From: a virus
Reading direction: 5' to 3' (one strand)
Virus record (IMG/VR): IMGVR_UViG_3300009104_001476
Length of the DNA stretch: 64,000 nt
Position numbers and translations under genes: made by a program
In this document: piece by piece, positions 19,394 through 40,996 of the stretch
How the letters are laid out: the number at the start of each line of letters is the position of its first letter
Position numbering within the stretch: position 1 is the stretch's first letter
The notes under the pieces: generated by a model
The model's database searches: none
What the model saw: only the letters and a program-made list of their open reading frames with translations
What the model was told of the DNA's origin: nothing

Positions 19394-22300
19394 ATGGCAG
19401 AATCCGCATCAGTAAGAGTAAGGGCAGAGTTAGACTCGCGCCCCGCAGAGAAAACCTTGGCCCGCTTTGTAAAAAAAGCGGAAAGTGTTGATGTAAGGCT
19501 GTCTTTAAAAGACAAGAACTTTACTCAGCCTCTCGGAAGAATTACCGGAGCCGCTGACGAGTTCAATAAATCTCTCGCTGCTTCGAACGCTCGCGTCGTA
19601 GCTTTCGCGGCCTCAGCTGGGTTAATGTATTCCGTCCAAAGAGCTTTAGTCTCTGTTACTAAATCAGCCATTGAGGTGGAGGCAGCCTTGGCTGATATCA
19701 ATGTTATCCTTGGAGCTTCCTCTACAAATCTTGCTAAATTTGGAGATCAATTATTTAAAATAGCAGGGCAAACTGGTCAAGCTTTTCAAACAGTTACCGT
19801 GGCCGCTACTGAATTGGCTCGTCAGGGTTTATCGATGGAGGAAACCCTCAGGCGAACTAAAGATGCCATGATCCTGACTAGATTGGCCGGTATGGATGCG
19901 GCTTCAGCCGTAGACGCCTTAACGGCCTCAATCAACTCATTCAACAAAGCGGCTATCACGTCTACCGAAATAGTAAACAAAATGGCTACAGTCGATGCGG
20001 CCTTTGCGGTAAGTACAAACGATTTAGCGGACGCCTTAAAACGCGTAGGTAGTAGCGCTATTGACGCGGGAGTTAGTTTCGACCAGTTGATGGCTATGAC
20101 TACATCAGTGCAACAGATTACTGCTCGTGGTGGCGCAGTTATCGGTAACTCATTAAAGTCTATCTTCACCCGCATTCAAAGAACCGAGGTTTTGGATCAA
20201 CTGCAAATGTTGGGCGTGGCAGTAAGAGACATGAAAGGAAATACTTTACCAGCTATCCAAATCATGACCCAATTGGCTAAAACTATAGATAGTTTAAGCT
20301 CTGCTCAAAAAGCTAACATTACAGAATTAATGGGTGGCGTCTTCCAAATCAACGTAGTTAAAGCTGCTCTCGGTGATTTAGGTAAGGAATATTCTATTTA
20401 TCAAAACGCTTTAAAAGTTTCTACAGACGCAACCGACGCAGCGACTAAAAGAAATGAAAAGTTAAATGAAACTCTATCTGCTTTAGTAAATAAAACTTTC
20501 CAGAACGTTAAGAAAGCAGGCGCGGAGATCGGCAAATTAACTATCGCTCCAGCCTTGGAGGGGGTGCTAGATAAAGTAAATAGTGCGCTGGAAAAATTCG
20601 ACCCGAAAGATTCAGAAAGCACTGGTAATAAAATTGCTCGAGGAATTCTGGAAGGCATAGGTAACTTCATTAAGGGACCCGGGTTAATTATTGGTTTAGC
20701 TGTCATAGGAAAACTTCTTCAACAATTCGGTAAATTTGCTAGCGACTCATTCAAAGAGTTCTTTAATATCAACGAAGCAGCGAAAAAAAGACTCGCTATG
20801 GAGAAGTTTATTAATCAAGAACTATCTCACAACGAAGATTTAACACAAGCTATATTATCGGGAGAACTGAAAGTTGCTGATGCAGAAAAAATTATATTAA
20901 AAGGTTTAGAAGCTCGAGTTCTCCAGCAGGAGAAATTAAATAGGTTGATCAAGGAGGCTTCTTACGGGCTGAGCCGTAGAGGGGCTCATGCGGCATTGGT
21001 TGATCCGACAGAAGGAACTTACGCAGTTAAGCCTCCTAAAAGGTCTGGTGGCCATGTCCCGAATTTTTCTCAGATAGATATTCAGGCTTTAGTTAAAGAA
21101 GAGTTAACGTCTGCAAGCTATGCAAAATCAGGCACGAAAGCTGTAATTGATACCTTACCCGGTTTAGGACTCCATGTAAGAAATACCGAAGAGAGCATAT
21201 CTTACGCTCCGGGTATGAGGTCTCCTTTTATCAATCCCCCAATTGATAGTCCCGAAGGAAGAACTCATAGAGAAAAATCAATACGGCAGACTGGTATAGA
21301 CCCTTATCAATTATCATCGAGTTCAGGGCTTCCGGGTTTTGCCAAGGCTAACAAAAAAAAGCCTACCCCAAAAATAAAAGACTTAAGATCTAGTAATAAA
21401 TCAAAAGGCGTACTTCTCCCAGAGTTTGGCAGGAACGACACGAACTTAACGTTTCAATCAAGTCTAGCTCAAGTCTTTCCTGACACTAAGAGCCTAGAGA
21501 GGCAGAAATGGGCAGAAAAGGGCTTTACCGGTTTTAAGATGACTGGTGTAAAAGCTGCTAGATTAAGAGAAAAATCTTCAGCCTCTTTCGACACCTTGTT
21601 AGATTCCAATTTCGACCCCGCGATACAAGGCTTGGGTTCATCTATAGTAGGAACCAATAAGGGTAAACTTCCTAAAAAGACCACCGGAAAATTTTCTGAT
21701 TACTTTGATAAAAAAGCTTGGCCTCAAACTAAAGGTCGAATCTTCGAAGCGGCTTTAAATTATGTTGCAGTTAACATGTCTGCAAAAGCTCAAATGAACA
21801 ACAGGCTTGCAGAGATTAAAAATCTTACTGGAGGAGAAACTTGGGATTTCCCAGATATAAAAAATCAATTGGCGTCTTTATATAAGATTCAGCCGGCGGG
21901 GAACTGGGACGCTAAGTCGAACATTGACCAAGGGACTCAAGCCTCTATTATCAAGAAAACTTTGAATACTAAATATCAAGGTAAAACTATTCCAAATAAA
22001 TCTGCCGGATCTATTCCTAACTTCAGCCTAGGCCAAAAAGTTATGGGCATAAATACTATTCAGGCAAAAAACGCGATAGAAAGATTTAGATCTGGAGAAA
22101 TTTCGCAAGCGCAAGGATTAGTTACTCAGATTAATTCTTCCAGAAGTTTATCTTCAGCAGAAAAGAGCACATTGAAAGAGGAGATCAATGCTATTAGACG
22201 TCAAAAGAAAAACGCAAAGAATCCTAAAGGCCTAACTATCGATGGGACTAATTTAGGGAGCATGCTAGTTCCAAGAGTCGGCTCTTCTCAGGGAACCGGT

Positions 22301-25300
22301 TTAGCTAAGCCTAAAATAGATAAAGACAATACCTTGCTCCGTCAATATCTTTCGAAAAATTACCAAGCGAAAACTGGATTAAATTTTGACAAGCTCCCTG
22401 AAGAAGCGAAAAAGAAAGTCATAAGCTCAACGAAAGCTTCATTTCCTGTTTTGGCTCCTTCTCGAGGCAACAACGTCAACATTGTCGATGATGTAGCCAC
22501 CGCGATAGAAAAAGAAACTAGAAGCTTCGTAGCAAGCATGAAAGGCGGGAGTGAAGCCAAAAAAGCAAACGTACTAAACAACTTAAGCACTCATCAGAGT
22601 AGTATCAGCTCCGCTGCTGGAGCAGTATTTGAGTCAGGAATTAAATCAGCTTTTGATTTAGAAATTGGGAAAACAAATGATAGGTTCGATGTCTCGACCT
22701 CTGCAGGTCTTAAGGAGGCTTTTCCAATTGAAACCCCTTATGGAGAATTTAAAATAGATGATAATAGCCCATTGAGACAAGACATGGCCGCAAAGATTTT
22801 GAGGCAAAAAATACAAATGGGTATAGCTTCCGGGGGGCATGTGCCAAACTTCGCATCTCCCCAATCTTTGACAACGCCGCCTCCGCCGTACACACGTGAA
22901 GAGACCGAGAGATTAATCAAGCTCTGGACCAGCGGCAAAGCAAATCGTTTTGATCCAAACGATTTGTGGGAATCCATGCCTAGGAACAGAAGAGGCCCCG
23001 AGGTAGACCCAATTACGGGGTTACCTGTAAGCCTCAAAAGTCCTACTCACTCAGCCCGTTTGCAAAGGGGCTATCAGGGGAATCCCGCCTTTGGGTTTGG
23101 ACTCAGCCCTTGGTCCGGGGGGGCTGTCGAACCAAGAGTAAATCCGAGAACGGGCTTGCCTTATGCTGGGGGTTTTATTCCTAGTTTTAGCAAAAAAGAT
23201 ACAAACAGAATGAGAGAGTCTAAACAGGCGGGAGTGCCTTATTCTCAGACTTACCTCAGCTTCGTTGATACGTCGAAATACGCTGGCCCTGTGATAGGGA
23301 ACAGAAAGGATGAACCAACCTACCAAGCCCTGATAAAAGCCGTTAGAAGCCATCCTGACCCCAAGAATGCAGGTATGGCAGCGGGTGGATACATCCCGAG
23401 TTTTGCTGATGCTGCAGATGCCCCCGCCCCTCTACCGATAAAGAAGATGAATCTAGATGATCTTGGTTCTGAACCTCTGAAAAGGGTTAAAACGCTAGAG
23501 TCTAAATTGAAAGGCTTTGTAGCGAGGTTAGAAAAAATGAACGAAACTACGGGCGGCTTAAGCCCAGAAGTAAATGAAGCTGTAGAAGAAGCAAAAGGAG
23601 CCCTTTCATTTGTTCAGAAGACTGGGAAAAAGTTAGGAGAGCTTGGTGGTAAAATTCAAGAGCTAGAAGATGAACTGAAGCCGTTGGAAACTGATCTTGA
23701 CGAAGCTAACCTGTCAATTCAGGGAAGCAATACTCATCTTGAGGGCTTACGCGGCGAGCTTGAACAATTTAAAGCCGAGTTGGGTCAAACGGAAGACGGA
23801 GTAACTCTCGCGAGAGAAGATTTGAAAGCATCTAATAATGCTATATCAAGCTTACCCAATCTGGAGGATGGGTATAAAAATTTAAAAACAAAGGAAGAGG
23901 AAAAGCTCCAAGAACTAAGAGCCGCAGAACAAGCTGCTGGAAAACAAGAAAGAAAAAATCTGGTTAATAAGAGAGCTGTGATCCAAGGGGACTTTGACGA
24001 AGAGGGAATGCGCCACGGTCAACCTGATAGAGTGGGGTACACAAAAAGCGTTTTAGGAGAATTAGGAGCAAACGCTGGCCAAGCAGGAGGTAGGAGTTCG
24101 ATAAAGACCTTAACGGAGGGGGTTGGAGCTAGCAAGACGGGTCAACTAGATTTAAAGGCTCAAGATGCTCTTGCGATAACTTTACAAAAGCAAAGAAACG
24201 CCGCAATCATGGGGCAACATGACGAAGCACAGAAGATAGAAGATGAATTCAGGCTTACTCATAAAATCTCAGAAAAACATACGCATACCCAAGATGCTTT
24301 AGATAAAGTTTTTCAGAAAAATTTAGACGCCGGCACAACCATAGGTAACAAGGCCGAGGAAGAAGCAGCCCTGTGGGATAAAACAACACAAGCCAAGAAG
24401 GCTGAGTATGAGACTGCCAAAGACAAGACAAAATTAGCTGAAGGTGAATATAAAGAAGCGAAGAGGCTGAAGGGCTTGCGCGGTAAAAGAGAAAAAGCTT
24501 TAGATAAAGCAACAAGAGCGGAAGAGAAAGCGGCTGATCAGGTAACATTGACTAATCGTAAGATATCAGAAGGAAATCAAGAGCGGGATAAGCAAAAACG
24601 TAAACAAAAAGATATAAATAATAAAATTGATAAAGTCAACAAGGAGTTGGATGATGAGGTAAAAGCACAGGCGGCAAAAACAAAAGAAGTTGAGGAAGGC
24701 GTAGATAAGGCAAAAAAAGTTAACGATTCCACGGGCAAAGTTGAGAAAGGACTACAAAAAGAAGCTGAGGGTCGTAAAAATCAAAGCTTCGGAGCAGGAT
24801 CATACAATCCGTGGTCTCAGCAAGGGAAAAGATATAAATCTCTAAAGGTTGCTGCTGGTGGAGATACGGATGCACTTGCCGCTCTTGGACTGACTCAAGG
24901 GCAAGCTCAGGGTGAATTAGCTGGAGCTAAAGAACAAAGACAACAAGCCATACAAGGTAAAGCTATGTTGGCTTCAATGGCGTTGCCGATGGTAACGAGC
25001 ATGGCTGCTCAACATTTTGAAGAAGGTACTGAAGAAGGCGCGCGCGGCAAGGCGGGGGCGGAGGCAATCGGACAGGCAGGCTCTATGGCTGCTATGGGTG
25101 CGATGTTTGGACCTTGGGGTGCAGCTGCAGGTGCCGTTGTCGGAGCAACAATGGGGATTATAGACGTTTTAGGCAAGTGGGAAGATAAAACTTATGAATT
25201 TAATACCGCTGCGGAAACAGCAGAGGAGAAATTGACTAAATTCAATAACGCTTCACAAACTTATTTAAAGTCTCTTACTGAATTCAACGAAGTAATGACT

Positions 25301-28300
25301 TCTACATCTGGTGAAATTGACGGAAATAAAGCTGACAAATTTAGAAAAAATCTTAGCGAAGCTTTACTAAGTATTCCAAGTGAATACAGATTCCAACTTA
25401 GCAAGGCTCAAGGTAATGTAGAAAGGATTCAAGAGATCTTTGCAGAAATTCAAGCAGACTTGCAAAGAGACGCGAATACCAGAAGAGCTCAAGCGGACTT
25501 AGCCACAGAGATAGAAGAAAGAATACCTAGAGGCAAAGGGAAGATGTTTAAAGGAAAGGAGAGTGATAGCGATCAGAAAAAAGTTTTCGAAATGATCAAG
25601 AGTACTTTAGACATGAGTAGGTTTTACGGAGAGGAAGGGGAAAAGCTCGGAGCTAAATTAAGAAACGCTTCTAAAAAAATAGCTAGCGATTTTAGTGGCT
25701 TTAAGGCCGTTTTAAAAGAGGCTGGCGCAGACGCAAAAACCTTAGAATTGCTAGACGATATGCTTGAAGGTGGCGCGTCGAATATAACGCTGTTAGGTGA
25801 TGAATTTGAAAACTTTGGTTCAGACGCCGCTCTCGCTTCTAGAGCAGGAGATAATTTAACCTCTTCAATACTCGCTTATAGAAGAAGAATGGAGGCGGTC
25901 AAAGAAGAACAGGATAGATGGAACTCTATAATGGACGAATCTAAAGAACGAGTTAAAAGACTCGCGTCTGTATTGCTCGACAGATTAAAATTCATAGACA
26001 ACATGAGGAATCAGCGGGCCGCCCATGCTAGAGGCATGGCCATGACCGAAATAAAAGGCAGACAACAGGTAGCTCAACCGTTTATAGATAATATACAAAA
26101 GGTAGACTTAGGAGCTTCGGTTCAACGAGCCGATATGCAAAATAAACAGGTGAACTCTTTAGAAAAACTTAATAGCTCTATTAAGATAGGTTTAATCGGC
26201 ACTATAAATGATAAATTTGAAAAACTAACGACTTCTACTGAAAGGATAACTGAAAACGCAAGTGAAGACCAGAACCTTACAAATAACGAGCTACAAAAAC
26301 AAAATAAAACTTTAACAGGATACAGAGACGCTTTAATTAAAGCTGTAACGTCAGCTTCAGGTGGCGGGGACACGTTTCACGAAATAGCCGCCTCAATGAA
26401 AGAAATCATAAAGAAAGCAGAAGTAACGGGTTCTGCGCGCGCCGCATTGGAAAGCGATTTATTAGCCGTCGTAGAAAAAGGAAATCATGACTTGGCGTTA
26501 ATGAGTGATGCTCACAAGAATGAACTAGAAACACAAAGACTAAGCGCTCAGTACCAAAAAGAGACTGCTATAAACACAAAGCAAATGGCCCAATTAGGAA
26601 CTATTGGAGGAATGATGGCCGGGCCAGACTTTTCAAAGATTAATAAAGTGTTTGAAGATGCAGCTTTAAGCTCTTTTAGAGCAAACTCTGATCAAGAAGG
26701 AAGCAGGAGCTCTCTAAATATCTTAGATTTATTAAGAAATTTTGCTGGAACATCAGGAGCAGCTTTACCGGCTTCAATGAGAGCAAACGCTGTGGAGGGG
26801 GTAAAAAGTAACCTTTCCACTAAAGTAGCTAGAATCCGATCAGGTATGGAAAGTACCGGGCAAATGACTCCGGAGCTACAAGAAGAACTTGACCAGTTAA
26901 ATAATAACCTAGACGAAATAGCAGAAACTAAAGTCGCCGCCCAGCTAAAAGATGTTCCGACTCACTTGCAAACCATTGCGGACAAAATTAGCAGTCTAAC
27001 AGATAAAACCGTAAATGAAGCCTCTATGGAGCAAGCTGTTGCGGCGGCACTAACATCGGTCATGGGCGGTTCTTCTAAGCATATAGTTGATCCTTTAGTA
27101 AGAATAGAATCTATACTTAACTTCCAGAGGGGAATTAACGAAATTAAACAAGTACAGAACAACGTAGCTGATGCGTTAAAGGCTCAACAACAACTAGCTG
27201 GAAATATAGAAACGAGTATGAGTGAAGTGGGAAGTATGGCGATAGACTTGGCTAAGAATGTACCCGACTCTATTTTAGACGCCACTGTAGGAATGAATAT
27301 TAAACAAATTCGAGGTCTTATAGATAACGAAGGACAAGGTTTTACGCAAGATGCGGAGGGGCTTGCTAAACAGAAAGGTGCCCTTCAGAAGTTAATGAAC
27401 GTGGTGATCAAGTTAGACGGCACAATAACGAGGGGTAAGGTTTTCGATACTGACTGGGGGCTAAATTCGCCCGATCTTGTCGCTGAAAGGGAGGACGCTA
27501 AAATTATAGGTGGAAATACAAGTGCGATAAGTAGAACGGGGCAAGGGTCGATGCTTCATAAACAGATAGTAGATTTAAAGGCGAATCAAGAGAAGTTTGA
27601 AAGTGACACGCGTTCAGGTAAGTATGACGAAGCCTTTAATGAGGGGATGAACCTTACAAAAATATCAGCTCTGAAACGGCACATGTACGGCGCGGGCCCC
27701 ATATCGGATGTCATCAGGATTACGAAGGAGCATTTAAGGATGAACAAAGAGTTCGGGTTTAAAGGGCCGGGAGAGGGACCCCGAGTCGATCATCAGCTTA
27801 TCGAGAAATTTATTAATAAACTTGTAACATCCTCGGCTTCACTAAAGGGCGATGAGAAACTCGATTTCGGTGCCGTATGGGGTTTACTAAGGGAAGCAGA
27901 TCAGGAATGGGTAAATCAAAAAGGTCCAAGATACGGGATGGCTTTTAATCAGAGTGACGGAGGGAACCTCACTAATCAAAAGAAGGTTGTAAATGCTGCG
28001 CTGCTGGCTTTAGCTACGTATGCTGAGAATCAGAAGTCTGGAGCTAGCATAGATCACTCTGGGTCGTGGTCAGATCAATCTGGGCGAAGGAAGACGGTAA
28101 GGGAAGAAGTAAGAAATCAAATGAACGCGACCATGCAAGGACTTCAGCAGAGAGCCGATGATCCGCTACAAACGGGTAGAAAACATCAAGTGCTACCCAC
28201 TTTCGATCAATTAACGGGAGAGGGGGGGTTGCTAGATAAGCAACTAGTTAAGAACCAAGAAGTGGAAAGTGCTCAAGCGGAAATGCGCAGATTAATGGCC

Positions 28301-31300
28301 CAGTTGACAAAACGCTCAACGGCTGAGCAAGTCAATATGATGAGGGACCGTTATGCTGGAGAGATGAGACAGAGAGAAGGTAAAATGGGCGCTATAGTTA
28401 CTGGACTAGGCATAGGACCGGGCGCAAAGGATGAGGTGATGGACAAATTAAAGAAGGCGAGCTCGGTTGAAGAGGTGACAAAAATCATAAAAGACGCGGA
28501 TGGAGAAGTCTCAGATAAACAAAAAGTCACTCTAGAGCAACTTGAAGGCGAAATACAAGAACATAAAGCTCAGAAAAAAGTCTTAGAAGAAATTACGGCC
28601 ATTTATAATCGGAAAAAGGCTACCGCTGCCGCCGCCGCGGCTGAAGAAGAAGAAAAACTGAAAGTAGAAAGAAAAGCTCTAGAAAAGGAAGCAAGCGGTA
28701 AGATCGGCCAAGCTCTAGAGCTAAAAACTCCCGAAGCGAAAAGAGCATTCAATAAAGAGATTAGAAATATGGATTGGAAAAAGCTTTCTGAGCTAAATAC
28801 ATATTTCGATGAACAGGAAGCAGGCGTTTTACACGCACTGTATCCGGGCTCGAAGGACCTAGAGGAAGCTTTATCTCCTACAGGAGGCTTACTCGGAGAA
28901 GGGAGTGCGGCTAAGAGGAAAACAGTCAAAGAGATGATGGCGGAGAGAACAAGGCAAGCCGCAGGAAGAACTGCGAATTTATTTGGAGATAATATATTTA
29001 GTTACGATGCAGAACTTCAAAAGGCTGGCTTTAAGGAAAGATATACAAATCCAATGCTTCCCGGACAGAATAATGCTTTTAAAAATGCAAAAATAGATGA
29101 CCCGTTTCAAATCCGCGCTGGAGCAGAAGTCACTTTCATGGATGACAAGGGTATTATAGAAAGCATTAGAGACAGATACGCTACAATTGGAGTTGGCGCT
29201 CAAGAGGCTAAAGCCCTTACGCAAGACGTGGCCAAGAAAGTTATTAAGGGGAGATTGGAAGCCTTCAAACTATTTAAAAATTCAGACTTAAGTTATAGTC
29301 AATATATAGTTAAGTTAGCGGGAGCTGAACTGGAAATGTTTAGAACAGATGCTGCATCCGGGAAAATAAGCCAAGCAGACTTAGCCGGTAAGTTAAAGGC
29401 TCAAGTAGATAAAGAGTTAGGAGAAGGGTTAAATGTCGATCATTTATTCGCTCAGTACTTGCACGCCAACATGTCCATGAATAAGAAAGACTATGATAAT
29501 TTAGCTCGCACAGTTGCAGAGTCAATGGCTTCAGGATTGATGGGACATAAAGGCGGTGGAATTCATTCTGCTCAATTAGTTCAAGATAAGAGTAAAAAAA
29601 TCGTAGACCGTGTGAAGGGCCTTGAATTAGGTAAAAGTCAAACAACGGCTTATACTAATGCTCTAGGAACATTCGAAACATTCCAAATGAATTTTAACCT
29701 AGGCTTAGGGGGCAGAGCACAGATGCTTGCTGCTTTAAATACGAAACTTCAATCTGCTCTTCAGAACACTAGGGGAACAGATGGCGAGATAGAAAAAGCT
29801 TACGATGAATACATAGAAGCTTTAACTACTGGCTTAAGGCCTCAAGATAAAATTATGGAACGTAAGGGCATAATGGATTCTACGGGTAAGAAGGTGGGGA
29901 GAGATCAGATAAAAACTTTAGATTCGAAAGTTGAAAGTATAGTAAACAAATACGAAGGTCAGGCCGCGGCTGGCCTGATAACAGAGGAAGGCCGGACAAC
30001 TCTACAAAATGCTGAAAGCATACTTGAGGCTACAAAGCTAGCTAACGAAAAAGACTTAGTCTCTACGGCCGCTATGACCACCGCAAGAAAGAATTTTTTA
30101 GACGCCTTACTTAAGCATGGATCAGATCAGACGGCGGTTGCTGATGCTTATAGGAATTACGCCGCGTCTGTGGCCGCTAAATTTAAACCGCAAGATTTAA
30201 CCGGTATTAGCGCACAAGTTACGGGGCAATTTGGTCAAGAAATGATGGGACCAGACGCAGGCACTTTTGGCGCAACCTCGCAAGCTATAACCGAGAAGTA
30301 TAATAAGGCGTTCGGGAAGGGACAAATATCGAAAGCAGCAGTACCAAGATTAGCAAAAGCCGAAGGGGCGCTCAAAGCTGCTGAAAGTAAAGCTAAAGCA
30401 GGAGTCTTAACTGCGGAACAATTAACGGGCGCTTATTTGAAATTTCTAAATACTCTCAATTCTGAAACTAATAAGCTTACTGAGGTTCAAGCGGCTTATG
30501 AGAAATATACAGCGAGCTTAGGTGAGAAAAAGGGCGGGAAGGATTTGGTCACAAGCAGAACCAAAGTCCTTGAGGCTACGAGAAAAGGCGCCACAAGAGG
30601 CGGTCAAGCTGGATTAGTTGAGGAAGTCGAGTCAATAACCAAAGCCAATCAGAGACTTTTCAATAGAGGAAAATTAACCGGTGAAAGCTTAGAAGCTTTA
30701 AATAAAGCAGAAAGTCAGTATCATAATGCTCAAACCAATTGGGCAAACGGTTTATCGAGCACTGCGGCGTTGATGGCTGCAGCATCTAAGAATCTTCAAG
30801 CGGCTGTCGCTTCCGGCAACACTGGTAAAATAAAAAAAGCATTAAATGAATACATATCGAAATTAGATACAGAGCTTAAGCCTCAAGACTATCTTGAAAA
30901 AGCTGGTAAATTCATTCAAAAAAATCAAAACAAAGTAGGAAAAGGTAATAGAGAAGACTTCGCTAAGGATTTGAAAAAAACATCAGACAAGTACGAAAAG
31001 TTAGTTGATGAAGGGTTATTGACCGAGCAGGATGGTCAAATTATTTCTCAAGCTTTAGCAGACTTTGGCGCAGCTCAACAAAACTTCAAAGACGGTTTGA
31101 TTTCTCAATCGCAACTTTTGAAAAGTGCTGAAAATCAATTATCAAAAATCTCTGGCACAAGCGGAAGCGCTGAAATCAAAAAAGCCATGAAAGACTATAT
31201 GAAGGCGTCAACTGAGCCTATCGACGCCTTGTCCACCTTACAAGAGACCGGCAAAGATCTGGGGTCCTTGGGCGGGGGGATACTGGGTAAAGATCTGGGC

Positions 31301-33604
31301 AAATTCAAAAAGCAACTTCAAGGCATAAACCAGTCTTACAACGACTCGGTCAATGATGGTACCCTTACTAGACAAAACGCTAAGACTTTAAAGAAGGCAG
31401 CTAAAGACTTCGCTCTCTCTGAATATGAATTTGGTAAAGAGATGAGAGGTTCAGCGGATCACATTAGCGCAGCTAAATCTCTGCTTGAGAAGCATTTAAA
31501 AGTAGGCAGCAAAAAAACAGAGCAGTCTTTGAAAAAGTATTTAAAAGCTATTGATGGAGCCACGACCCCTTTAGATGTAAAGCAGTTTAATATAGGTCAA
31601 ATCACAAAATTTGCAGAACAATTAACTAAGGCGGAAAGAAGAAAATTCCGCAGAAGCTTAAATGGAAAAGATTTCAAAGAGATAAGAGCTTCTAGGGAGC
31701 GTGGAGAAATATCAAGAAAGGAAGAGAAAGATATATCAAGTAAGCTGGGTGAAATCAAAAAGTTAGAAGCCGAGGGCGCCCCTCTTGAAGAAATAAGAAA
31801 AGCTTGGGACGATTACTACAAATTGAGAGGAAGGGCATATGATTCAGAGACTGAATTTATAAAAGGTCTGGCAAATTTTTATAGATTGAGCGGTCAAGGC
31901 GACATTAAAGAGGTAATGGACACCACTAGAAGGGGTATTGTGAATCAATCTAGAGGAGACTTCTCTGACCTTGATGAGGCCCAAGGGTTCAATCAGAACT
32001 TAATCGACTATCAAAACGAATTAAGGACTATAGCTGCAGAAAGAGGAGCAACCGAAAACGATCTTAAAGATGCCCTTAAGGCTGAAGCCGAATATCAAAA
32101 AATGATTATTGACTTTAACAAAGGCAAGATCCAGTCTAAAGATAGGATAGCTGGTGCTGACGCAGCACTAAAGGCTAAGAGAGCAGCAGGGAAGGACACG
32201 GCGGACGATTTCCTTGACGCTATGCAGGCAAGATTTTCATACGGCAAAAGAGAGGCGATTCAAGCTATACAAGACACTGTGTTAAATATGATCGATACTT
32301 TTGAAAGCGAATTAAATGACGCTTTATTTAACGCTATTTCGGGAGCTAAAGACGCCAAAGAAGCCTTTAAAGACATGGCTGACGCCATGCTTGATGAAAT
32401 AACTAGAATGAGTATAGAAGCGACCACTAGGGCTGTTATAGGAAGCTTAGGGATACCGGGTATGGCAAGGGGTGGATTGGTAACGGGTGGATCAGGAGTT
32501 AAAGATGATGTTCCTAGGCTGTTACAGGGGGGAGAATTCGTAATAAAGAAAGATTCTGTGGATAAGTTTGGACCGGGATTATTTAAAGCTCTAAATGAAC
32601 AAAATGTTGCCCAGTTTAGTGAGGGGGGGGTTGCTAGCTCTTTAGAGACCCCTTTGCAACGAAGTATGAGGAGTAAGGGTATTGGAATAGGGATGGAGAA
32701 GGTGGAGCATGTCCCTGATCCTCAAGGAGGACTAAGTAGTATTTCTGACACTAAAGGCGGAGGCTCTGGATTTACCTTGAGAAACGCTTTTGTTTTCGAT
32801 GACGATAAAAGGCCTACGGGTGGGGTTCTTGAAGTAGATTCAAGGTTAAGTAGAAGAGCTTTAATGGATCCAGATAACCCGAGGAATAAAGTAAGGATGG
32901 ATAAAGAAAAAGCTTTGGTAGATTATACGGAACAAAGAATGCAAGACTGGGAAGATTATCAAGAGGCTATGCAAGATTATTATGATAAAAGAAAAAATCG
33001 GTGGAGAATGGCTGGGTGGAATATAGCTATGCAATTAGGCTTAAATTATATGAAAGGCGATAGGGGTGGTGCTAAAAATAAGGGAGAGGGTCGCTTGCAT
33101 GGAGCATGGGACTGGGTTAATGATAAAATAAATAAAAAGGACAATGAACCTTTCCCGGGTGGACAACAGCCGCAAAGAAGAGCTCAAGGAGGCTTTATTC
33201 CGTTTGCAAACGGAGGTCTTAGCTCTGATAAAATACCAGCTATGTTAACCGCTGGTGAATATATAATGAGTAGAGAGTCCGTAGAGAAATATGGTATCGA
33301 CACAATGCGTAAGTTAAACCAAGGACAAGTAGGGGGGTATGCTAAAGGAGGTTTAGTAAATGAAGGAGGTCCGTCTAGTAGTGGAGCGAGTGGTTTATCT
33401 GGCTCTGTAGCAGGAACTAATAACGTTAACATTACAGTAAATGTTGATAGCACGGGCAAGGCTGATAGTCAGTTATCTTCTCAGGGGAGTGCGGCTTCCG
33501 AATCCGAGCAATCTAAGAATATGGCTAGGCAAATAGAAACAGCAGTTGTGGGGGTGTTGTTACAACAGCAGAAACAAGGCGGTATGCTTAGAAAAACTAG
33601 GTAA
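19394..33604 (+). CDS. Tape measure protein, 4736 aa, with internal cargo-like segments
   Basis: N-terminal TP901-type TMP region (ATELARQG, MATVDAAFAVS, RGGAVIGNSLKSIFTRI); long A/K/E-rich helical body; two C-terminal copies of the D.(V/I)P..L..GE(F/Y)(V/I) motif; aaggaataagga RBS. Confidence 0.9.
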   Translation: MAESASVRVRAELDSRPAEKTLARFVKKAESVDVRLSLKDKNFTQPLGRITGAADEFNKSLAASNARVVAFAASAGLMYSVQRALVSVTKSAIEVEAALADINVILGASSTNLAKFGDQLFKIAGQTGQAFQTVTVAATELARQGLSMEETLRRTKDAMILTRLAGMDAASAVDALTASINSFNKAAITSTEIVNKMATVDAAFAVSTNDLADALKRVGSSAIDAGVSFDQLMAMTTSVQQITARGGAVIGNSLKSIFTRIQRTEVLDQLQMLGVAVRDMKGNTLPAIQIMTQLAKTIDSLSSAQKANITELMGGVFQINVVKAALGDLGKEYSIYQNALKVSTDATDAATKRNEKLNETLSALVNKTFQNVKKAGAEIGKLTIAPALEGVLDKVNSALEKFDPKDSESTGNKIARGILEGIGNFIKGPGLIIGLAVIGKLLQQFGKFASDSFKEFFNINEAAKKRLAMEKFINQELSHNEDLTQAILSGELKVADAEKIILKGLEARVLQQEKLNRLIKEASYGLSRRGAHAALVDPTEGTYAVKPPKRSGGHVPNFSQIDIQALVKEELTSASYAKSGTKAVIDTLPGLGLHVRNTEESISYAPGMRSPFINPPIDSPEGRTHREKSIRQTGIDPYQLSSSSGLPGFAKANKKKPTPKIKDLRSSNKSKGVLLPEFGRNDTNLTFQSSLAQVFPDTKSLERQKWAEKGFTGFKMTGVKAARLREKSSASFDTLLDSNFDPAIQGLGSSIVGTNKGKLPKKTTGKFSDYFDKKAWPQTKGRIFEAALNYVAVNMSAKAQMNNRLAEIKNLTGGETWDFPDIKNQLASLYKIQPAGNWDAKSNIDQGTQASIIKKTLNTKYQGKTIPNKSAGSIPNFSLGQKVMGINTIQAKNAIERFRSGEISQAQGLVTQINSSRSLSSAEKSTLKEEINAIRRQKKNAKNPKGLTIDGTNLGSMLVPRVGSSQGTGLAKPKIDKDNTLLRQYLSKNYQAKTGLNFDKLPEEAKKKVISSTKASFPVLAPSRGNNVNIVDDVATAIEKETRSFVASMKGGSEAKKANVLNNLSTHQSSISSAAGAVFESGIKSAFDLEIGKTNDRFDVSTSAGLKEAFPIETPYGEFKIDDNSPLRQDMAAKILRQKIQMGIASGGHVPNFASPQSLTTPPPPYTREETERLIKLWTSGKANRFDPNDLWESMPRNRRGPEVDPITGLPVSLKSPTHSARLQRGYQGNPAFGFGLSPWSGGAVEPRVNPRTGLPYAGGFIPSFSKKDTNRMRESKQAGVPYSQTYLSFVDTSKYAGPVIGNRKDEPTYQALIKAVRSHPDPKNAGMAAGGYIPSFADAADAPAPLPIKKMNLDDLGSEPLKRVKTLESKLKGFVARLEKMNETTGGLSPEVNEAVEEAKGALSFVQKTGKKLGELGGKIQELEDELKPLETDLDEANLSIQGSNTHLEGLRGELEQFKAELGQTEDGVTLAREDLKASNNAISSLPNLEDGYKNLKTKEEEKLQELRAAEQAAGKQERKNLVNKRAVIQGDFDEEGMRHGQPDRVGYTKSVLGELGANAGQAGGRSSIKTLTEGVGASKTGQLDLKAQDALAITLQKQRNAAIMGQHDEAQKIEDEFRLTHKISEKHTHTQDALDKVFQKNLDAGTTIGNKAEEEAALWDKTTQAKKAEYETAKDKTKLAEGEYKEAKRLKGLRGKREKALDKATRAEEKAADQVTLTNRKISEGNQERDKQKRKQKDINNKIDKVNKELDDEVKAQAAKTKEVEEGVDKAKKVNDSTGKVEKGLQKEAEGRKNQSFGAGSYNPWSQQGKRYKSLKVAAGGDTDALAALGLTQGQAQGELAGAKEQRQQAIQGKAMLASMALPMVTSMAAQHFEEGTEEGARGKAGAEAIGQAGSMAAMGAMFGPWGAAAGAVVGATMGIIDVLGKWEDKTYEFNTAAETAEEKLTKFNNASQTYLKSLTEFNEVMTSTSGEIDGNKADKFRKNLSEALLSIPSEYRFQLSKAQGNVERIQEIFAEIQADLQRDANTRRAQADLATEIEERIPRGKGKMFKGKESDSDQKKVFEMIKSTLDMSRFYGEEGEKLGAKLRNASKKIASDFSGFKAVLKEAGADAKTLELLDDMLEGGASNITLLGDEFENFGSDAALASRAGDNLTSSILAYRRRMEAVKEEQDRWNSIMDESKERVKRLASVLLDRLKFIDNMRNQRAAHARGMAMTEIKGRQQVAQPFIDNIQKVDLGASVQRADMQNKQVNSLEKLNSSIKIGLIGTINDKFEKLTTSTERITENASEDQNLTNNELQKQNKTLTGYRDALIKAVTSASGGGDTFHEIAASMKEIIKKAEVTGSARAALESDLLAVVEKGNHDLALMSDAHKNELETQRLSAQYQKETAINTKQMAQLGTIGGMMAGPDFSKINKVFEDAALSSFRANSDQEGSRSSLNILDLLRNFAGTSGAALPASMRANAVEGVKSNLSTKVARIRSGMESTGQMTPELQEELDQLNNNLDEIAETKVAAQLKDVPTHLQTIADKISSLTDKTVNEASMEQAVAAALTSVMGGSSKHIVDPLVRIESILNFQRGINEIKQVQNNVADALKAQQQLAGNIETSMSEVGSMAIDLAKNVPDSILDATVGMNIKQIRGLIDNEGQGFTQDAEGLAKQKGALQKLMNVVIKLDGTITRGKVFDTDWGLNSPDLVAEREDAKIIGGNTSAISRTGQGSMLHKQIVDLKANQEKFESDTRSGKYDEAFNEGMNLTKISALKRHMYGAGPISDVIRITKEHLRMNKEFGFKGPGEGPRVDHQLIEKFINKLVTSSASLKGDEKLDFGAVWGLLREADQEWVNQKGPRYGMAFNQSDGGNLTNQKKVVNAALLALATYAENQKSGASIDHSGSWSDQSGRRKTVREEVRNQMNATMQGLQQRADDPLQTGRKHQVLPTFDQLTGEGGLLDKQLVKNQEVESAQAEMRRLMAQLTKRSTAEQVNMMRDRYAGEMRQREGKMGAIVTGLGIGPGAKDEVMDKLKKASSVEEVTKIIKDADGEVSDKQKVTLEQLEGEIQEHKAQKKVLEEITAIYNRKKATAAAAAAEEEEKLKVERKALEKEASGKIGQALELKTPEAKRAFNKEIRNMDWKKLSELNTYFDEQEAGVLHALYPGSKDLEEALSPTGGLLGEGSAAKRKTVKEMMAERTRQAAGRTANLFGDNIFSYDAELQKAGFKERYTNPMLPGQNNAFKNAKIDDPFQIRAGAEVTFMDDKGIIESIRDRYATIGVGAQEAKALTQDVAKKVIKGRLEAFKLFKNSDLSYSQYIVKLAGAELEMFRTDAASGKISQADLAGKLKAQVDKELGEGLNVDHLFAQYLHANMSMNKKDYDNLARTVAESMASGLMGHKGGGIHSAQLVQDKSKKIVDRVKGLELGKSQTTAYTNALGTFETFQMNFNLGLGGRAQMLAALNTKLQSALQNTRGTDGEIEKAYDEYIEALTTGLRPQDKIMERKGIMDSTGKKVGRDQIKTLDSKVESIVNKYEGQAAAGLITEEGRTTLQNAESILEATKLANEKDLVSTAAMTTARKNFLDALLKHGSDQTAVADAYRNYAASVAAKFKPQDLTGISAQVTGQFGQEMMGPDAGTFGATSQAITEKYNKAFGKGQISKAAVPRLAKAEGALKAAESKAKAGVLTAEQLTGAYLKFLNTLNSETNKLTEVQAAYEKYTASLGEKKGGKDLVTSRTKVLEATRKGATRGGQAGLVEEVESITKANQRLFNRGKLTGESLEALNKAESQYHNAQTNWANGLSSTAALMAAASKNLQAAVASGNTGKIKKALNEYISKLDTELKPQDYLEKAGKFIQKNQNKVGKGNREDFAKDLKKTSDKYEKLVDEGLLTEQDGQIISQALADFGAAQQNFKDGLISQSQLLKSAENQLSKISGTSGSAEIKKAMKDYMKASTEPIDALSTLQETGKDLGSLGGGILGKDLGKFKKQLQGINQSYNDSVNDGTLTRQNAKTLKKAAKDFALSEYEFGKEMRGSADHISAAKSLLEKHLKVGSKKTEQSLKKYLKAIDGATTPLDVKQFNIGQITKFAEQLTKAERRKFRRSLNGKDFKEIRASRERGEISRKEEKDISSKLGEIKKLEAEGAPLEEIRKAWDDYYKLRGRAYDSETEFIKGLANFYRLSGQGDIKEVMDTTRRGIVNQSRGDFSDLDEAQGFNQNLIDYQNELRTIAAERGATENDLKDALKAEAEYQKMIIDFNKGKIQSKDRIAGADAALKAKRAAGKDTADDFLDAMQARFSYGKREAIQAIQDTVLNMIDTFESELNDALFNAISGAKDAKEAFKDMADAMLDEITRMSIEATTRAVIGSLGIPGMARGGLVTGGSGVKDDVPRLLQGGEFVIKKDSVDKFGPGLFKALNEQNVAQFSEGGVASSLETPLQRSMRSKGIGIGMEKVEHVPDPQGGLSSISDTKGGGSGFTLRNAFVFDDDKRPTGGVLEVDSRLSRRALMDPDNPRNKVRMDKEKALVDYTEQRMQDWEDYQEAMQDYYDKRKNRWRMAGWNIAMQLGLNYMKGDRGGAKNKGEGRLHGAWDWVNDKINKKDNEPFPGGQQPQRRAQGGFIPFANGGLSSDKIPAMLTAGEYIMSRESVEKYGIDTMRKLNQGQVGGYAKGGLVNEGGPSSSGASGLSGSVAGTNNVNITVNVDSTGKADSQLSSQGSAASESEQSKNMARQIETAVVGVLLQQQKQGGMLRKTR
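29780..31900 (+). repeat. Degenerate ~112-117-aa protein repeats in the TMP
   Basis: Y..Y...L...L.PQD-like anchors with Pro at 29840, 30188, (D 30542), 30881, 31217, 31568; spacing 336-351 bp. Confidence 0.7.
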
Positions 33605-34442
33605 GTTTATTCTTTAATTCTTGAAGCTCTTTATCTATAGTCATCAAAGCTTGATTAAGTATAGCTTCATTTTTATTTATATCATCTCTAAGTAAGGGTA
33701 AATTTAGATTAGGAGTAAAGTCTGTTAAAATTCTATATTGTGCATTAATTTTATTATCTTTAAGGTAATTTGTTTCAAGTATTAATTCCCACTTAGTCGT
33801 TGAGACTTTTCCATTCTGAGTGTTAGGGGGTAGTGGGTGATTTAAAACTATAACAGTGCCTTTTTCAGAATATAATAAATTAGCTATGGACCTATCTTCG
33901 ATTGTCCTTTTGTCAAGCATGTTGAAATTCACCTCTACTTCGGCTTTTCCAAAGACTTGTTTAGTTTCCGGAGCTTCTATATATATTCCATGGGTATCCA
34001 CTTCTATATTAAGGATTCCTCCATTCTTATCAACTTCTGTGACTTTAAGTTGAGTGGGGATGTCTACGTCATTGACTAAATCTTTTTTAGAGAGTCCTCC
34101 TTGAAGGGTAAGGATTTCCCCCTTTTTGAAGTCGGCGCCCTTTTTCTTGATAGATATTTCTGAGACTTCGTACTCTTTGAATGTAAGCCTGATAGAGTCG
34201 TTCAAGCCGAGCTTAAGCCCTGTATTCTCGTGAATAAAGATTTTATCATTTTCGACCCTCTCGAAGTCTTTGATATAAAAGAAGTTTTCTTTATTTACTA
34301 TTTTGTAAAAATTATCATCCTCGTCAAAAACAATAAAGCTTCCCTCTATTAAAGCCCCCCAATCCGCTTGGGAAGAAGCAATAACTTTATTAGTGTCTTT
34401 TAAAATAGAAGCCGTATATCCGAAATGTTTCCTTGTTGCCAT
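33597..34442 (-). CDS. Tail-associated hypothetical protein
   Basis: 281 aa; GADFKKGEILTLQGG...LKVTEVDKNGGI resembles repeat modules of virion proteins; last gene of the tip block. Confidence 0.5.
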   Translation of the reverse strand: MATRKHFGYTASILKDTNKVIASSQADWGALIEGSFIVFDEDDNFYKIVNKENFFYIKDFERVENDKIFIHENTGLKLGLNDSIRLTFKEYEVSEISIKKKGADFKKGEILTLQGGLSKKDLVNDVDIPTQLKVTEVDKNGGILNIEVDTHGIYIEAPETKQVFGKAEVEVNFNMLDKRTIEDRSIANLLYSEKGTVIVLNHPLPPNTQNGKVSTTKWELILETNYLKDNKINAQYRILTDFTPNLNLPLLRDDINKNEAILNQALMTIDKELQELKNKLT

Positions 34443-34454
34443 AACCTTGTATAT

Positions 34455-35207
34455 TTAATTTACACTATTTGGTGGTAGATTTATGTTATTTTCGGGCAAA
34501 GCTGCGATAAGAATTGCCTGTTCCCCGCCTTCTTCATCTGGCGCCGAAACCGTAATTTTGGGTCGAAATACGTAAGAACTCCCCACTTGGGTAACTTTTA
34601 CACTTTTTATAGATCCATCTTCTACCTCTGCTTCTGCTTCCATATTGAACCCTTTCTTTAAGGGGTGTCCGTTTGGCCCCTCTATTTCTATTGTCGGTGG
34701 GGAACTGTATCCTTTTCCGGGGTTGTCTATATAAACTTCAAATACGTTATCATAAACATTAAAATTATTTATATCTTTAGTTTTTTTGAACTCGAAGTTC
34801 CTGACAAGATCTGGAATATCTCTTAAGTATTGTTTAATTTTTGCTATTCTTTTCTTACATAAAGAACAATCTTCCTGCTCTAACAACTTAATTATCTCTA
34901 TATCTAGTTTTTGTAAAAGTTTTAATCGAGAGCTTTTTAGTTTTTGTATTTTTTGCTCTATGAGGTGGGATTCTATTTTCACTTTACCTGTTTCTGGGTT
35001 ATAGTAATCACCGAACGTCGCCAAGTCATCTTCCGTGTCGTTAAACCATAGGGTCTTGTGAACTGACTCTTGAGAAAATTCTTTAAAGGATAGGCATTGT
35101 CTTACCGCTTCCTCTCTCTGAGTGCTAAAAGGAAAAGAGTAAGTAAGCTTCTCTCCAGATTTTAATACAAAAATTAATATATTATGATTGTCTCTATTTT
35201 CGTTCAT
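34455..35207 (-). CDS. Tail fibre assembly-like protein
   Basis: 250 aa; LKSSRLKLLQKLD...KQYLRDIP resembles tail-fibre chaperone motifs; C-terminal NPGKGYSSPPTIEI / QVGSSYVFRPKITV repeats. Confidence 0.5.
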   Translation of the reverse strand: MNENRDNHNILIFVLKSGEKLTYSFPFSTQREEAVRQCLSFKEFSQESVHKTLWFNDTEDDLATFGDYYNPETGKVKIESHLIEQKIQKLKSSRLKLLQKLDIEIIKLLEQEDCSLCKKRIAKIKQYLRDIPDLVRNFEFKKTKDINNFNVYDNVFEVYIDNPGKGYSSPPTIEIEGPNGHPLKKGFNMEAEAEVEDGSIKSVKVTQVGSSYVFRPKITVSAPDEEGGEQAILIAALPENNINLPPNSVN

Positions 35208-35209
35208 AA

Positions 35210-38200
35210 TTAATACCCAGTCTTATACCAGCCTGACACATCCCCTGTCCAGCCTATTCCGTCATAGCTTTGAGAAGATACAAACGCATAGTCAATTCCT
35301 AAAGCATCATCGTAACGGCTCCATCCTCCTACCGACCCCCACTGAGCAGTTTTTAGGGCAGTAGTATAATCGTTAGTGGTCACTACCCCAAAGAACGCCT
35401 CTTCTAAATAAGAGTCATCAATTAGTCGACCTAGGTGCACGTCAAAATATCTTCTATTTTTAATTAACCCGCCGTAACCTTGACCAAAGCCCGCAGGGTG
35501 ATGGTTCCATACCCCGGGTATGTTTTCTACAATGTCTCCGGGATCAAGCCAAGTCTGTACTGTCCCTGTCGAAAAGATATCTGTCCCTTCTCTAGCAAAC
35601 AGCATAGAGGTTTTAGAGGTCACTGAGCCTGCTGGCCAAGCAGTATACTTACCATTCCAAGCGTTCAAACCTAGAACTGTATACGATGCCAATCGGCCCG
35701 GTAAGTTGGGGGCGGGTAAATTATGTTCATCAAAATAGACTCTGAATCTTCTAAATCCATGTAGCGGTTTGGTGGCATCTATAGTGGGGTCGTCAGGAAG
35801 ATAAACTTGTGCTCCTGTTTCATTATAGGAAGGGATGTTGTCGTCATCAATACCACCTGCGTAACCTAGCACTCCTGAAACATACGCTGACCCAACATAC
35901 GGCTCTCCTGAATAAATATCTCTATGCCAAAATTGGGGTACACCGACTCGTAAACCTGTAGCTGTATGCGTGGCGCTTACCTGAACTGATTGTCCTCCCC
36001 AGTCTCCGTATTTAGCTGAACCAGCATCGTACTGTCCTTGGGTAAACCTGCATGAATAACTGTCAGAATAGTTAGGGTAATATCTAATCGGATTTTGATA
36101 TTCGGTTTCATCTTGCCTGCACCCATAATCAAAAAAGCCATTATATCCGTAAAAATTTTCCACGTCTTTTTTCGATAAGATCCTTACGTTTTGAACCCCG
36201 TTCCCTTCCCAGATTCCGTTTACGTTTATCCTTATCCAAGCATGATAAGGGCTCATGCCTTTAGAGCTCGTAAATTTAGTGGGGTAAATTGGGCAGCCAG
36301 TAAAGCCTTGGTAAGGCGTCCTTGCCCCGCCACTAAACCAAGGGGCACTTCTCACGTATTTTGATCCTAGAACTGGGGTTTCTCCATCTCTTAAGCCGTA
36401 AGCTAGGAAGTCTTCTTCGCTCAGTATATAATTAGAAGTCGACGGATTTCCGACTTGGACTGGGCTTCCCGTAGTATATAAGCCGGTGTTTGCGTGGGTC
36501 GCGCCTAAGGTATCATTGAATTGACTAATGTAAGGTCTAGCAAAACCAACCCAAAGGCCCTCGTTCCAACCTCCACCCCCTGCCGCTTTCCCAGAAACCG
36601 CATAATCAAAAGAGTCGAAAAGGCTCATCGCTACGTAATAAGCTTTATCGAAATTAAAATGATTAGGAGCGTCATAGGTGTTCGTAGCGCTACTGAAGCC
36701 TGCGCCCCAATCGGGTGAAACGATTATCGTATTATTCCTCCTTATAGTCCCGTCGCATGCACAATCAGAATATATAGTGGGCTCTGTAAATGGTATTGAA
36801 ATTATCTTATTTTCTGCCCTTGCGTCTGCGTCATTCGTAATGCCTAGCCTGCTGTATCTGGATACTCCTAGTAAGGTGTCAGACCTATCGTTTGCTGGTA
36901 TTCCGGTTAGTCCGCCTAAGGGGGAACTAGGGGCAGACGTGAAGTCTTCGTAAGCGCTAAACGGTGTCGCACTAAGATAAACGTAACCCCCTGCTATATC
37001 ATCTAAGTCGTAACCCATTTGCCTAAAGTTTATATATATTTTCCCGTCGGAAGTAATCATTTGTTCTGTGCATAAGTCTTCATCTCCTTGGCATAAACCC
37101 GGCCTAGCTCCTTGGTTTATAGAATCTCTAGGAGTCATCCAAAAACCAGAGGGTCTTACGTTATTAACTTCCGCTATATCATAACCTGACTGAGGCGGAT
37201 TAAATGCGTCTGTTGAGAACCCTCCATTTATTCTGTCTCTAGCAACCACAGCAATATCGTAATGGCGAAACGGTCCGTTAGGTAACGCATAGTTTTGTTC
37301 AAAAGGAAACTGGAACAAGTTCCGACTACCAGTGTAAGGGCCCCCTATAATATTACCTGTCAAAGCGTTACTACCCGGTAGGGGTTCCCTTATTGTCACA
37401 ACGTACTCTAGCTCGATAGGCGGAGTTTGACCTAAAAAGCTAGCGTCCCAAGTAAAGGCTTGATCTTTACTCTTAGGTTTTATCACAGCTCCTTTGCTTA
37501 TCGTATTGTTGTTAAAGTCGTCTGTCGTCAACCTTAACGAATGAACCGACACATCTCTTATCGGATTGTGCCCTGCTACGCTTATAGCTGGGGATTGAGC
37601 ATTCCCGTCAGAAGGAGCTCCCGCTCCGTTAAAAGCGTAAGCTAGAAAATAATGGCTAACGTTAGCCGCAGGTATATGAAAATTAGTAATTTTTGTATTT
37701 GAGGTTGCCGCATTGAGTGTCGCTATTTTGGTTTGAGGTCTAGGTATAGGAGGCACTGTATTTACTATGAAGTCTCCGGTCTCTGGATCGGTAGATGTAG
37801 TATCCCAAGCCGCTCCCGTTTTTAAATAAATATTATAGTGAGAAGTTGAGCCTAGCTGAATAACTCCCCCCGCTCCAGTAGGCACATCAACCGCATAATC
37901 TATTTTTTTACTGTTTACGGTTAGGTCCCCCAAGGCTCCGGTGATTTTTAAAGGGGCCGGAGGGGCTGATGCAGAACCTACGACATTAGGGTCTCTTGGA
38001 GTAAACACAATTCCAGACTCAATAGCCGCAAATTTACCAGTGTAGTGTTTGCTGGCTGTAATTTCGTGCTGTAATCCGTCGGTTTCTTTAACATCTAGCA
38101 CGTTATAGTACTCTGGCTCATATCGTCTATCATCAATACTCCATGAAACCCCCGTAGCTCTATCGTACCCAGCGGGTATCGTTCCAGTAGGGAAACCTAT

Positions 38201-40321: not shown

Positions 40322-40324
40322 ATT

Positions 40325-40996
40325 CTATATCACCCTACCCGCTTCATCAATACGTTTTCTTTCTACTTCATAGTGAGACATTATAACTTGACTACCAACA
40401 GTTAGTCGACCATACCCTATTGGAACTGGTCCGCCCTCATTGATAATATTAACTGGCCCGTTAAATAAATAGGAATTAGCTAAAGCTTGTGGGTCTGAGC
40501 TAGGGTTAGTTATTTGCCTATCCTCTGGGGGATCAGGAGGCTCTGACAGGGCGTTTGCCAACCCCGCAAAGAACAAGTTCGCTCCGATTATTTTCATCGT
40601 ATTGTTTCCTCCGCTCAGCCCAATTAAGGCTGCGCCCCCTAGCATCCCACCCAATCCTCCGCCAAAGTCTAAAGCACCAGCAACGCTATCGAACAAACCC
40701 ATGGCTCCTTCTACGACAGGTGCAACATCGATAGTCTTTAGGTTTTTGTACTTTATATTTAATGGGCTAGTCTCCTCGTTCCCGTTGTCCGTAAGGGTAT
40801 TGTTGTTAACCCTTATCGAGAACTTGACCCCTTTTCTCGCTAGAGAATTTATGATAACTCTAAATTTAGAATTAGTCATGGTGTTTATAGCGTGAAGAGC
40901 TTCTTGAACGCTAGACACCGAGAGCTCCCAAGTTTTTCTACCGAGTTTCTTGCCTACAACACCATGAATGTTGATTTTTACTAAATTTTTATTCAT
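40325..40996 (-). CDS. Tail assembly protein (lambda gpI-like, ubiquitin-like N-terminus)
   Basis: 223 aa; IHGVVGKKLG...SSVQEALHAI, IDVAPVVEGA, GGPVPIGYGRLTVGSQVI. Confidence 0.85.
   Translation of the reverse strand: MNKNLVKINIHGVVGKKLGRKTWELSVSSVQEALHAINTMTNSKFRVIINSLARKGVKFSIRVNNNTLTDNGNEETSPLNIKYKNLKTIDVAPVVEGAMGLFDSVAGALDFGGGLGGMLGGAALIGLSGGNNTMKIIGANLFFAGLANALSEPPDPPEDRQITNPSSDPQALANSYLFNGPVNIINEGGPVPIGYGRLTVGSQVIMSHYEVERKRIDEAGRVI

Follow-up and report, generated by a model that had tools for sequence, protein, structure and literature searches.

A previously unannotated domain with a nuclease-type residue signature in a modular cassette of siphovirus tape measure proteins

Tape measure proteins (TMPs) are usually seen as rulers, at most with a cell-wall hydrolase insert, and the enzymatic inserts known in them act on the cell wall; these include the muralytic motifs of mycobacteriophages, the peptidase region of T5 Pb2 and transglycosylase domains. 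The minimal PD-(D/E)xK nucleases (UPF0102/YraN, the Mrr catalytic domain, VRR-NUC, Hjc and RecU) are domains of ~100-120 residues with conserved residues in the order E...hD...(D/E)xK, where h is hydrophobic and the E, preceded by a G, lies in the first helix. In families of this kind, x is usually hydrophobic too, and a K or Q follows about 14 residues past the lysine, in the next helix. Here, we describe a domain with the same order of conserved residues and the same size, which is present twice inside the TMP encoded by a 64,000-nucleotide stretch of viral DNA (the window), namely the final 64 kb of the 142-kb IMG/VR virus record IMGVR_UViG_3300009104_001476.

Besides residue order and size, the likeness to the PD-(D/E)xK enzymes includes the D and (D/E)xK segments, which are probably neighbouring strands in the window domain as well. 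The window domain differs from them in having a helix-like L..LFG stretch between these strands and no evident first strand, in ending in an invariant G-[FY]-I-P-N-F motif, in being found in TMPs only and in giving no significant match to them. With the known TMP inserts it shares the character of a catalytic-looking globular module that travels in the tail tube and is expelled at infection. However, those inserts are recognised cell-wall hydrolases targeting peptidoglycan, whereas the window domain matches none of them, carries nuclease-type residues and belongs to a multi-module cassette with a common end motif. The virion-delivered proteins T4 gp2 and Mu N, which bind the incoming genome end or protect it and have no known sequence relation to the domain, are similar in that the head-proximal cassette would adjoin the leading DNA end; unlike the TMP domain, they are separate polypeptides.

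The two copies, designated modules B and C, and their host gene comprise the following features (window positions; aa, amino acids of the TMP; family columns refer to the alignment described below).

19394..33604, plus strand: TMP gene, 4736 aa; a single open frame with N-terminal Pfam and PHROG matches, followed by tip genes
19769..20329, plus strand: PhageMin_Tail domain, aa 126-312 (PF10145, E 3.4e-27)
21344..22024, plus strand: module B, aa 651-877 (earlier termed segment 2), from the alignments of relatives; one copy in the family model
21674-22024, plus strand: conserved core of module B (core B), aa 761-877, ending in the linker G-S-I-P-N-F at 22007-22024
21746..21748, plus strand: E785 of G-R-I-F-E, family column 33; invariant in 10 relatives, E in 93% of the family
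21845..21847, plus strand: D818 of W-D-F, family column 52; invariant in relatives, D in 97% of the family, with strong beta-type periodicity around it
21908..21916, plus strand: D839-A840-K841, family columns 73-75; D/E 97%, K 93%; A840 covaries with F819
21956..21958, plus strand: K855 in the helix after DxK, family column 89; invariant in relatives, K 88% and Q 8% in the family
22025..22852, plus strand: module C, aa 878-1153 (earlier termed segment 3), from the alignment of relatives and from jackhmmer searches between cores B and C
22544-22852, plus strand: conserved core of module C (core C), ~aa 1051-1153, ending in the linker GGHVPNF at 22832-22852
22631..22633, plus strand: E1080 of G-A-V-F-E, family column 33; kept in all relatives covering the site
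22688..22690, plus strand: D1099 of F-D-V, family column 52; conserved in relatives
22745..22753, plus strand: E1118-F1119-K1120; [ED]-F-K in all covering relatives; F1119 covaries with V1100
22793..22795, plus strand: K1134, family column 89; aligned with K855 in the family model

An earlier note on this DNA had proposed two tandem nuclease-like domains within the TMP. The residues it quoted were all found where it had placed them, in frame 1 of the open reading frame (ORF) 19394..33604, and the proposal of two homologous domains in a TMP was borne out by hhalign and by reciprocal jackhmmer searches, with PF10145 present in the same ORF. BLASTP of module B against module C gave no significant match. 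Comparison of their two small alignments by hhalign gave an E value of 0.0018 over 129 columns, with FE/FE, D/D, DAK/EFK and linker/linker in register. A jackhmmer search from core B reached core C (domain E 3e-19) and the reverse search reached core B (1e-16), the link running via many intermediates that were matched by both starting profiles. The downstream correspondence drawn in the note (ASIIKK with QDMAAK) is in register in the family model. The upstream one (GVLLPEFG with GSMLVPRVG) did not hold up: hhalign of the N-terminal halves (E 0.11) aligned other stretches, and such an upstream motif was present in 34 of 203 copies. Judged by these profile comparisons, modules B and C are paralogous copies of one ~100-residue domain, previously unannotated.

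Close relatives of the window protein are few. An exhaustive phmmer search of 1.84 billion representative proteins yielded 12, all of them TMPs or TMP fragments and some from marine samples, and word-indexed protein searches found three close TMP fragments only. A related-locus search with the single protein returned no relatives, and 50,697 phage records searched by tblastn with modules B and C and with the two following modules, D and E, contained no match. The larger family was obtained by scanning IMG/VR and the JGI metagenomes with the back-translated linker motif, followed by jackhmmer from cores B and C. The scan led to hundreds of loci, including 241 TMP-like ORFs with at least three linker motifs and up to 16 per ORF. 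The final family comprised 263 distinct copies from 237 loci, equivalent to ~224 effective sequences at 80% identity, nearly all of them within giant TMPs. A scan of genome contigs for the same motif produced mostly single, chance-level matches, and the domain itself was present on one contig only (L555).

In the 10 relatives aligned to module B, residues G781, F784, E785, D818, F819, K841, K855 and P875 were invariant and D839 nearly so; the corresponding positions of module C were equally conserved in relatives. Weighted conservation in the family was 100% for G29, 88% for F32, 93% for E33, 97% for D52, 97% for D/E73 and 93% for K75. Column 89 was K in 88% and Q in 8% (96% together), and the linker columns G110, P113, N114 and F115 were conserved at 93-100%. 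About 210 of the 263 copies retain every member of the set (G, aromatic, E, D, D/E, K and K/Q). At the x of (D/E)xK, the residues found are A, F, L, V and Y. The order E...hD...(D/E)xK with a hydrophobic x, by which PD-(D/E)xK enzymes are recognised, thus runs through the family and is intact in both window copies. The acidic and lysine residues singled out in the earlier note are indeed the conserved ones, both in the relatives and in the 263 copies, and the signature order that it gave (G..FE, D, (D/E)xK) recurs at the frequencies listed above for E, D, D/E and K. It should be added that in an earlier 242-copy alignment five degenerate copies were without E, D, K and K, all lost together. 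Such a conserved acidic and lysine set suggests a functional site.

Covariation in the family alignment places the two motif segments next to each other. The strongest coupling, with z 7.7-9.1 in three analyses, joins column 53 (the residue after D) with column 74 (the x of (D/E)xK), and the residue pairs offset each other in size: F/A (80 copies), F/S (11) and Y/A (10) versus V/F (18), V/Y (14) and L/V (15). The window copies represent one of each state, F819/A840 in module B and V1100/F1119 in module C. Because of this size-compensating covariation, the D segment and the (D/E)xK segment probably touch, and the two motif strands are probably in contact. Given this contact and the beta-type alternation, D, D/E and K would face the same side. 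Columns 24 and 28 couple with column 76. Linker column 111 couples with columns 65 and 83, which suggests that the GFIPNF segment belongs to the fold and is not a free linker. Robust couplings number two or three only (53-74, 28-76 and 24-76), and the possible strand registers around 53-74 score alike (0.35 for parallel and 0.36 for antiparallel). Couplings among near-invariant columns were rejected as artefacts, produced by the average product correction and a few degenerate rows. For the clustering of acidic residues that the earlier note expected, the covariation supports the part concerning the D and (D/E)xK segments, while the AlphaFold2 models are unreliable over the motif region.

Hydrophobic periodicity of the family alignment is beta-type at both motif segments and helical at helices 1 and 3. 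The periodicity and the low-confidence models (pLDDT, predicted local distance difference test, below 50) agree on the same succession: a helix (G..FE), a strand (hDh), a short helix (L..LFG), a strand ((D/E)xK), a helix (S...K) and GFIPNF. Such an order could reflect either a Rossmann-like arrangement or a PD-(D/E)xK variant whose hairpin has gained a helix.

A number of observations weigh against placing the domain among the PD-(D/E)xK nucleases. The succession suggested above is alpha-beta-alpha-beta-alpha-beta, versus the canonical alpha-beta-beta-beta-alpha-beta; a helix seems to lie between the D and (D/E)xK strands, and no strand is evident between helix 1 and D. Read directly, the residues around D and DxK in module B are rather polar for core strands. 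AlphaFold2 gave a pLDDT of 58 for module C and 54 for module B, with both motif cores below 50, from shallow inputs of 12 and 10 sequences, respectively, which predate the large family. The structural check proposed in the earlier note, as carried out on both segments, returned unreliable motif cores and an order that is not canonical. Pfam searches with the segments, 148 family members and six whole cassettes found no family and no recurrent weak family; PHROGs searches with the segments gave no match, profile searches of the PDB nothing relevant and atlas feature searches no usable match. Direct hhalign comparison with UPF0102, VRR_NUC and Mrr_cat (alignments of 30, 19 and 32 genome matches, respectively) was not significant, with best local matches at E 0.09-0.5 on the G..E helix, this helix being the best match in two of the three comparisons (UPF0102 and Mrr_cat). 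Conservation is also partly structural, since G29, G110 and P113 match or exceed the charged residues in this respect. Finally, a nuclease kept beside its own phage DNA would need some means of self-protection, and none is evident. In sum, searches by sequence, profile and structure produced no link between the domain and any nuclease family, and the fold assignment made in the earlier note was not confirmed. Many genuine PD-(D/E)xK members are likewise undetectable by sequence.

Other candidate relationships were also considered. A Foldseek search of the PDB with the poor model of module B gave no match at E <=0.001, and VIA-align likewise gave nothing. Bse634I, which appeared with the shallow profile of module B (E 0.84), was rejected as chance, since it aligned to the N-terminal half of the module and out of motif register. 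The beta-alpha-beta order prompted a look at Toprim (E plus DxD) and PIN (four acidic residues at strand ends), for which no Pfam match was found among the 148 members, no dedicated profile comparison having been made; on direct reading, the lysine of (D/E)xK is unlike the Toprim DxD. The only PDB matches of the deep family profile were plant hemopexin-fold seed lectins and albumins (4oei, 3v6n, 3s18 and 3lp9), with whole-chain E values of 3e-4 to 9e-4. The likeness is local and lies in G-x-[IV]-F-E-x-G-[IM]-x-[AS]-A-F ... D (profile columns ~27-75). A hemopexin-like repeat, in which tandem four-stranded blades of about 45-50 residues make up a propeller, was rejected, because about 40 of 133-151 columns align, single-repeat E values are 0.3-3 and the second blade strand is missing. 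The resemblance is at the motif level only, one partial motif per 100-residue domain, with no counterpart for (D/E)xK, K or GFIPNF, and is probably convergent.

The distribution of the domain bears on what it may do. The TMP N-terminal domain was present in 181 of the 237 host ORFs, and 52 of the remaining 56 ORFs were cut at the locus edge; for this reason, the domain is regarded as essentially confined to TMPs. It was never found standing alone or outside TMPs, either among the 1.84 billion representatives or in the 237 loci. The domain is present in 119 (82%) of 146 cassette ORFs that extend to the N-terminus, and its median start is aa 787. It is usually present once per ORF; two copies, as in the window, were found in 14 ORFs and three in one. 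Taken together, these sequences identify the domain as a standard element of the modular cassette found in a large family of siphovirus TMPs. The analogy with the nuclease tips of polymorphic toxins, drawn in the earlier note, does not fit this pattern. The likeness is that of a delivered protein with a putative nuclease module. Toxin tips, however, sit at the C-terminus, vary greatly between strains, occur on many kinds of carrier and have partner immunity genes, whereas the window domain is internal, is present in most cassette TMPs, typically near aa 790, was seen in no other context among the 1.84 billion representatives and has no evident immunity partner.

We tentatively favour, at somewhat less than even confidence, a PD-(D/E)xK-like domain that would act as a nucleic-acid enzyme or binder. 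Three other explanations were weighed against it. That the motifs are chance matches in the long, charge-rich filler of a TMP can be set aside almost completely. It is true that a loose form of the pattern occurs 0.24 times per shuffled TMP (P(>=2) = 0.025), that a third loose match at aa 2135 of the window protein is at chance level and that BLASTP between the two segments was not significant. But once hydrophobic flanks are required around D, the frequency falls to 0.0145 per shuffle and the probability of two or more matches to 0.0005; the profile links are reciprocal, the covariation is size-compensating and the residues are invariant or nearly so in the relatives and in the 263 copies. 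It is this conservation of residues across the family that excludes chance.

A purely structural role deserves more weight, and we consider it possible, if on balance somewhat unlikely. Here, the charged residues would be non-catalytic, forming a salt-bridge or Ca2+/Mg2+ cluster that staples a small structural module, which could keep the TMP oligomer in register, fix it to the tail terminator or the lumen of the tube, secure the genome end or serve as a latch released at ejection. Such a role would suit a domain that is standard in TMPs at a fairly fixed place and never seen outside them, that matches no enzyme family and whose most conserved positions of all are G29, G110, P113 and N114; the GFIPNF segment, which also ends core-less modules, covaries with positions 65 and 83. 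On the other hand, five charged positions kept at 88-97% in sequences of ~20-25% identity are more typical of an active or ligand site, in the few degenerate copies the charges are all lost and not exchanged, and the order E...D...(D/E)xK...K/Q is a recognised catalytic signature. Another possibility is a small metal-dependent enzyme, a hydrolase or transferase, whose substrate would be part of the envelope (peptidoglycan, a lipid or a phospho-sugar polymer) and which would help the TMP to cross the wall. This we hold to be distinctly unlikely. The cell-wall targets of known TMP inserts are in its favour, as are the beta-alpha-beta order, Rossmann-like and not canonical for PD-(D/E)xK, and one weak, non-recurrent match of core C to a HAD hydrolase family (E 0.13). 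Against these stand the lack of any lysozyme, transglycosylase, peptidase, amidase or lipase family match and of the signatures of those wall-enzyme families in the motif set. In addition, the cassette lies in the head-proximal third of the TMP, a part expected to exit last, while wall-degrading enzymes would be expected near the tip.

For the favoured reading, a nucleic-acid enzyme or binder, we suggest the following scheme. The domain would fold as a compact alpha/beta unit of helix 1 (G..FE), a short hDh strand, a short helix, the (D/E)xK strand and helix 3 with K/Q, onto which the GFIPNF segment would pack back. The side chains of E, D, D/E, K and K/Q would form one site, most likely a divalent-metal site handling phosphodiesters, and the module would be nuclease-like or nucleic-acid-end-binding, acting as a PD-(D/E)xK enzyme does. 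Because the domain is part of the TMP, few copies would travel in the tail tube; the TMP is trimeric in lambda and T5, and a trimer would carry three copies per virion, presumably in a non-native, extended form. These copies would be the last to leave the tube, directly before the genome, and would then fold in the envelope or cytoplasm of the host. At that site, the domain may cleave nucleic acid of the host or of competitors, or it may process the incoming DNA end or keep hold of it. The more specific proposal that this siphovirus family builds a metal-dependent nuclease into its TMP and injects it just ahead of the genome appears to us unlikely, though worth stating. The targets of such a nuclease could be host DNA, the DNA of rival phages or plasmids, defence nucleic acids or the phage's own leading end.

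Full-text literature searches found no paper on a nuclease-type domain inside a TMP and none on the GFIPNF cassette. What is new is an unannotated domain in the TMPs of more than 200 uncultivated phage contigs, within a cassette that no database describes; it combines two known kinds of feature, an enzyme-like TMP insert and a PD-(D/E)xK-like signature. Should the domain be a nuclease or a DNA-end handler, genome delivery in siphoviruses would gain a further step and phage counter-defence a new route. As an injected nuclease, it would be the first known nucleic-acid enzyme delivered as part of the tail ruler, and the GFIPNF-delimited cassette would be a general platform for injected effector modules. 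Even a merely structural domain would represent a large new TMP architecture, with invariant residues open to direct mutation.

The cassette in which modules B and C lie begins ~550 residues from the TMP N-terminus. A repeated G-G-[HFY]-[IV]-P-[NS]-F motif, with weaker forms at aa 645-649 and 872-877, divides TMP aa 552-1337 into modules, every one of which closes with G-[FY]-I-P-N-F. In addition to the features given above, the cassette includes the following.

21047..21067, plus strand: first linker, GGHVPNF, aa 552-558, the cassette start; found by regular expression on the translation, the motif class recurring in the TMP-like ORFs of other loci
22853..23404, plus strand: modules D and E, aa 1154-1337, with linkers at 23168-23188 and 23384-23404; without the E/D/(D/E)xK core

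The proline-rich module D (~aa 1156-1258; 22859-23167) is missing in the closest relatives P0002, P0003, P0005 and P0010. The boundaries of this gap coincide with linker motifs, which indicates that the cassette evolves by gain or loss of whole modules. The G-[FY]-I-P-N-F motif also ends modules without the E/D/(D/E)xK core, both in the window (21047-23404) and in loci L005-L517; it may represent a common last strand, a docking motif or a processing site.

Several smaller observations concern individual modules. Modules A (21068-21340, aa 559-649) and E (23189-23404, aa 1266-1337) look alike by eye, each with a short acidic N..E or N..DE after a hydrophobic stretch, and both also resemble, by eye, the G-E-[FY]-V motifs found towards the C-terminal end of the TMP. 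The start of module C (22052-22219, aa 887-942) is the sole confidently modelled part (pLDDT 80-85) and appears as a small helical hairpin or bundle. In one metagenomic relative (L003), an in-frame stop at L003:775-777 lies in the TMP, between the two parts of its module C; either a sequencing error or a broken gene could explain it.

The assignment of ORF 19394-33604 as a TMP is based on the PF10145 and PHROG matches, the lambda-type tip genes and the gene order kept in a relative. Its N-terminal part matches phrog_4211 (E 3.2e-47) and four more TMP PHROGs. Both features expected of a phage TMP were found, namely the N-terminal PhageMin_Tail domain and a position in the tail module beside the tip genes. 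Homologues of the lambda tail-tip proteins M, L, JAB, I and J are encoded at 35210-43038 on the minus strand, after the TMP gene, and the closest relative, P0002, has the same tail gene order on its contig. The whole set of tip genes (M, L, a JAB-only K, I, J and two more; 33597-43038, minus strand) is inverted relative to the TMP gene and converges on its 3' end, a layout likewise seen on the P0002 contig. Downstream of the cassette, the TMP contains a glycine/alanine-rich, glycine-zipper-like hydrophobic stretch (~24950-25150, aa ~1854-1918), and a second, short hydrophobic segment lies upstream of the cassette at aa ~425-445. The two stretches flanking the cassette are possible membrane-inserting segments.

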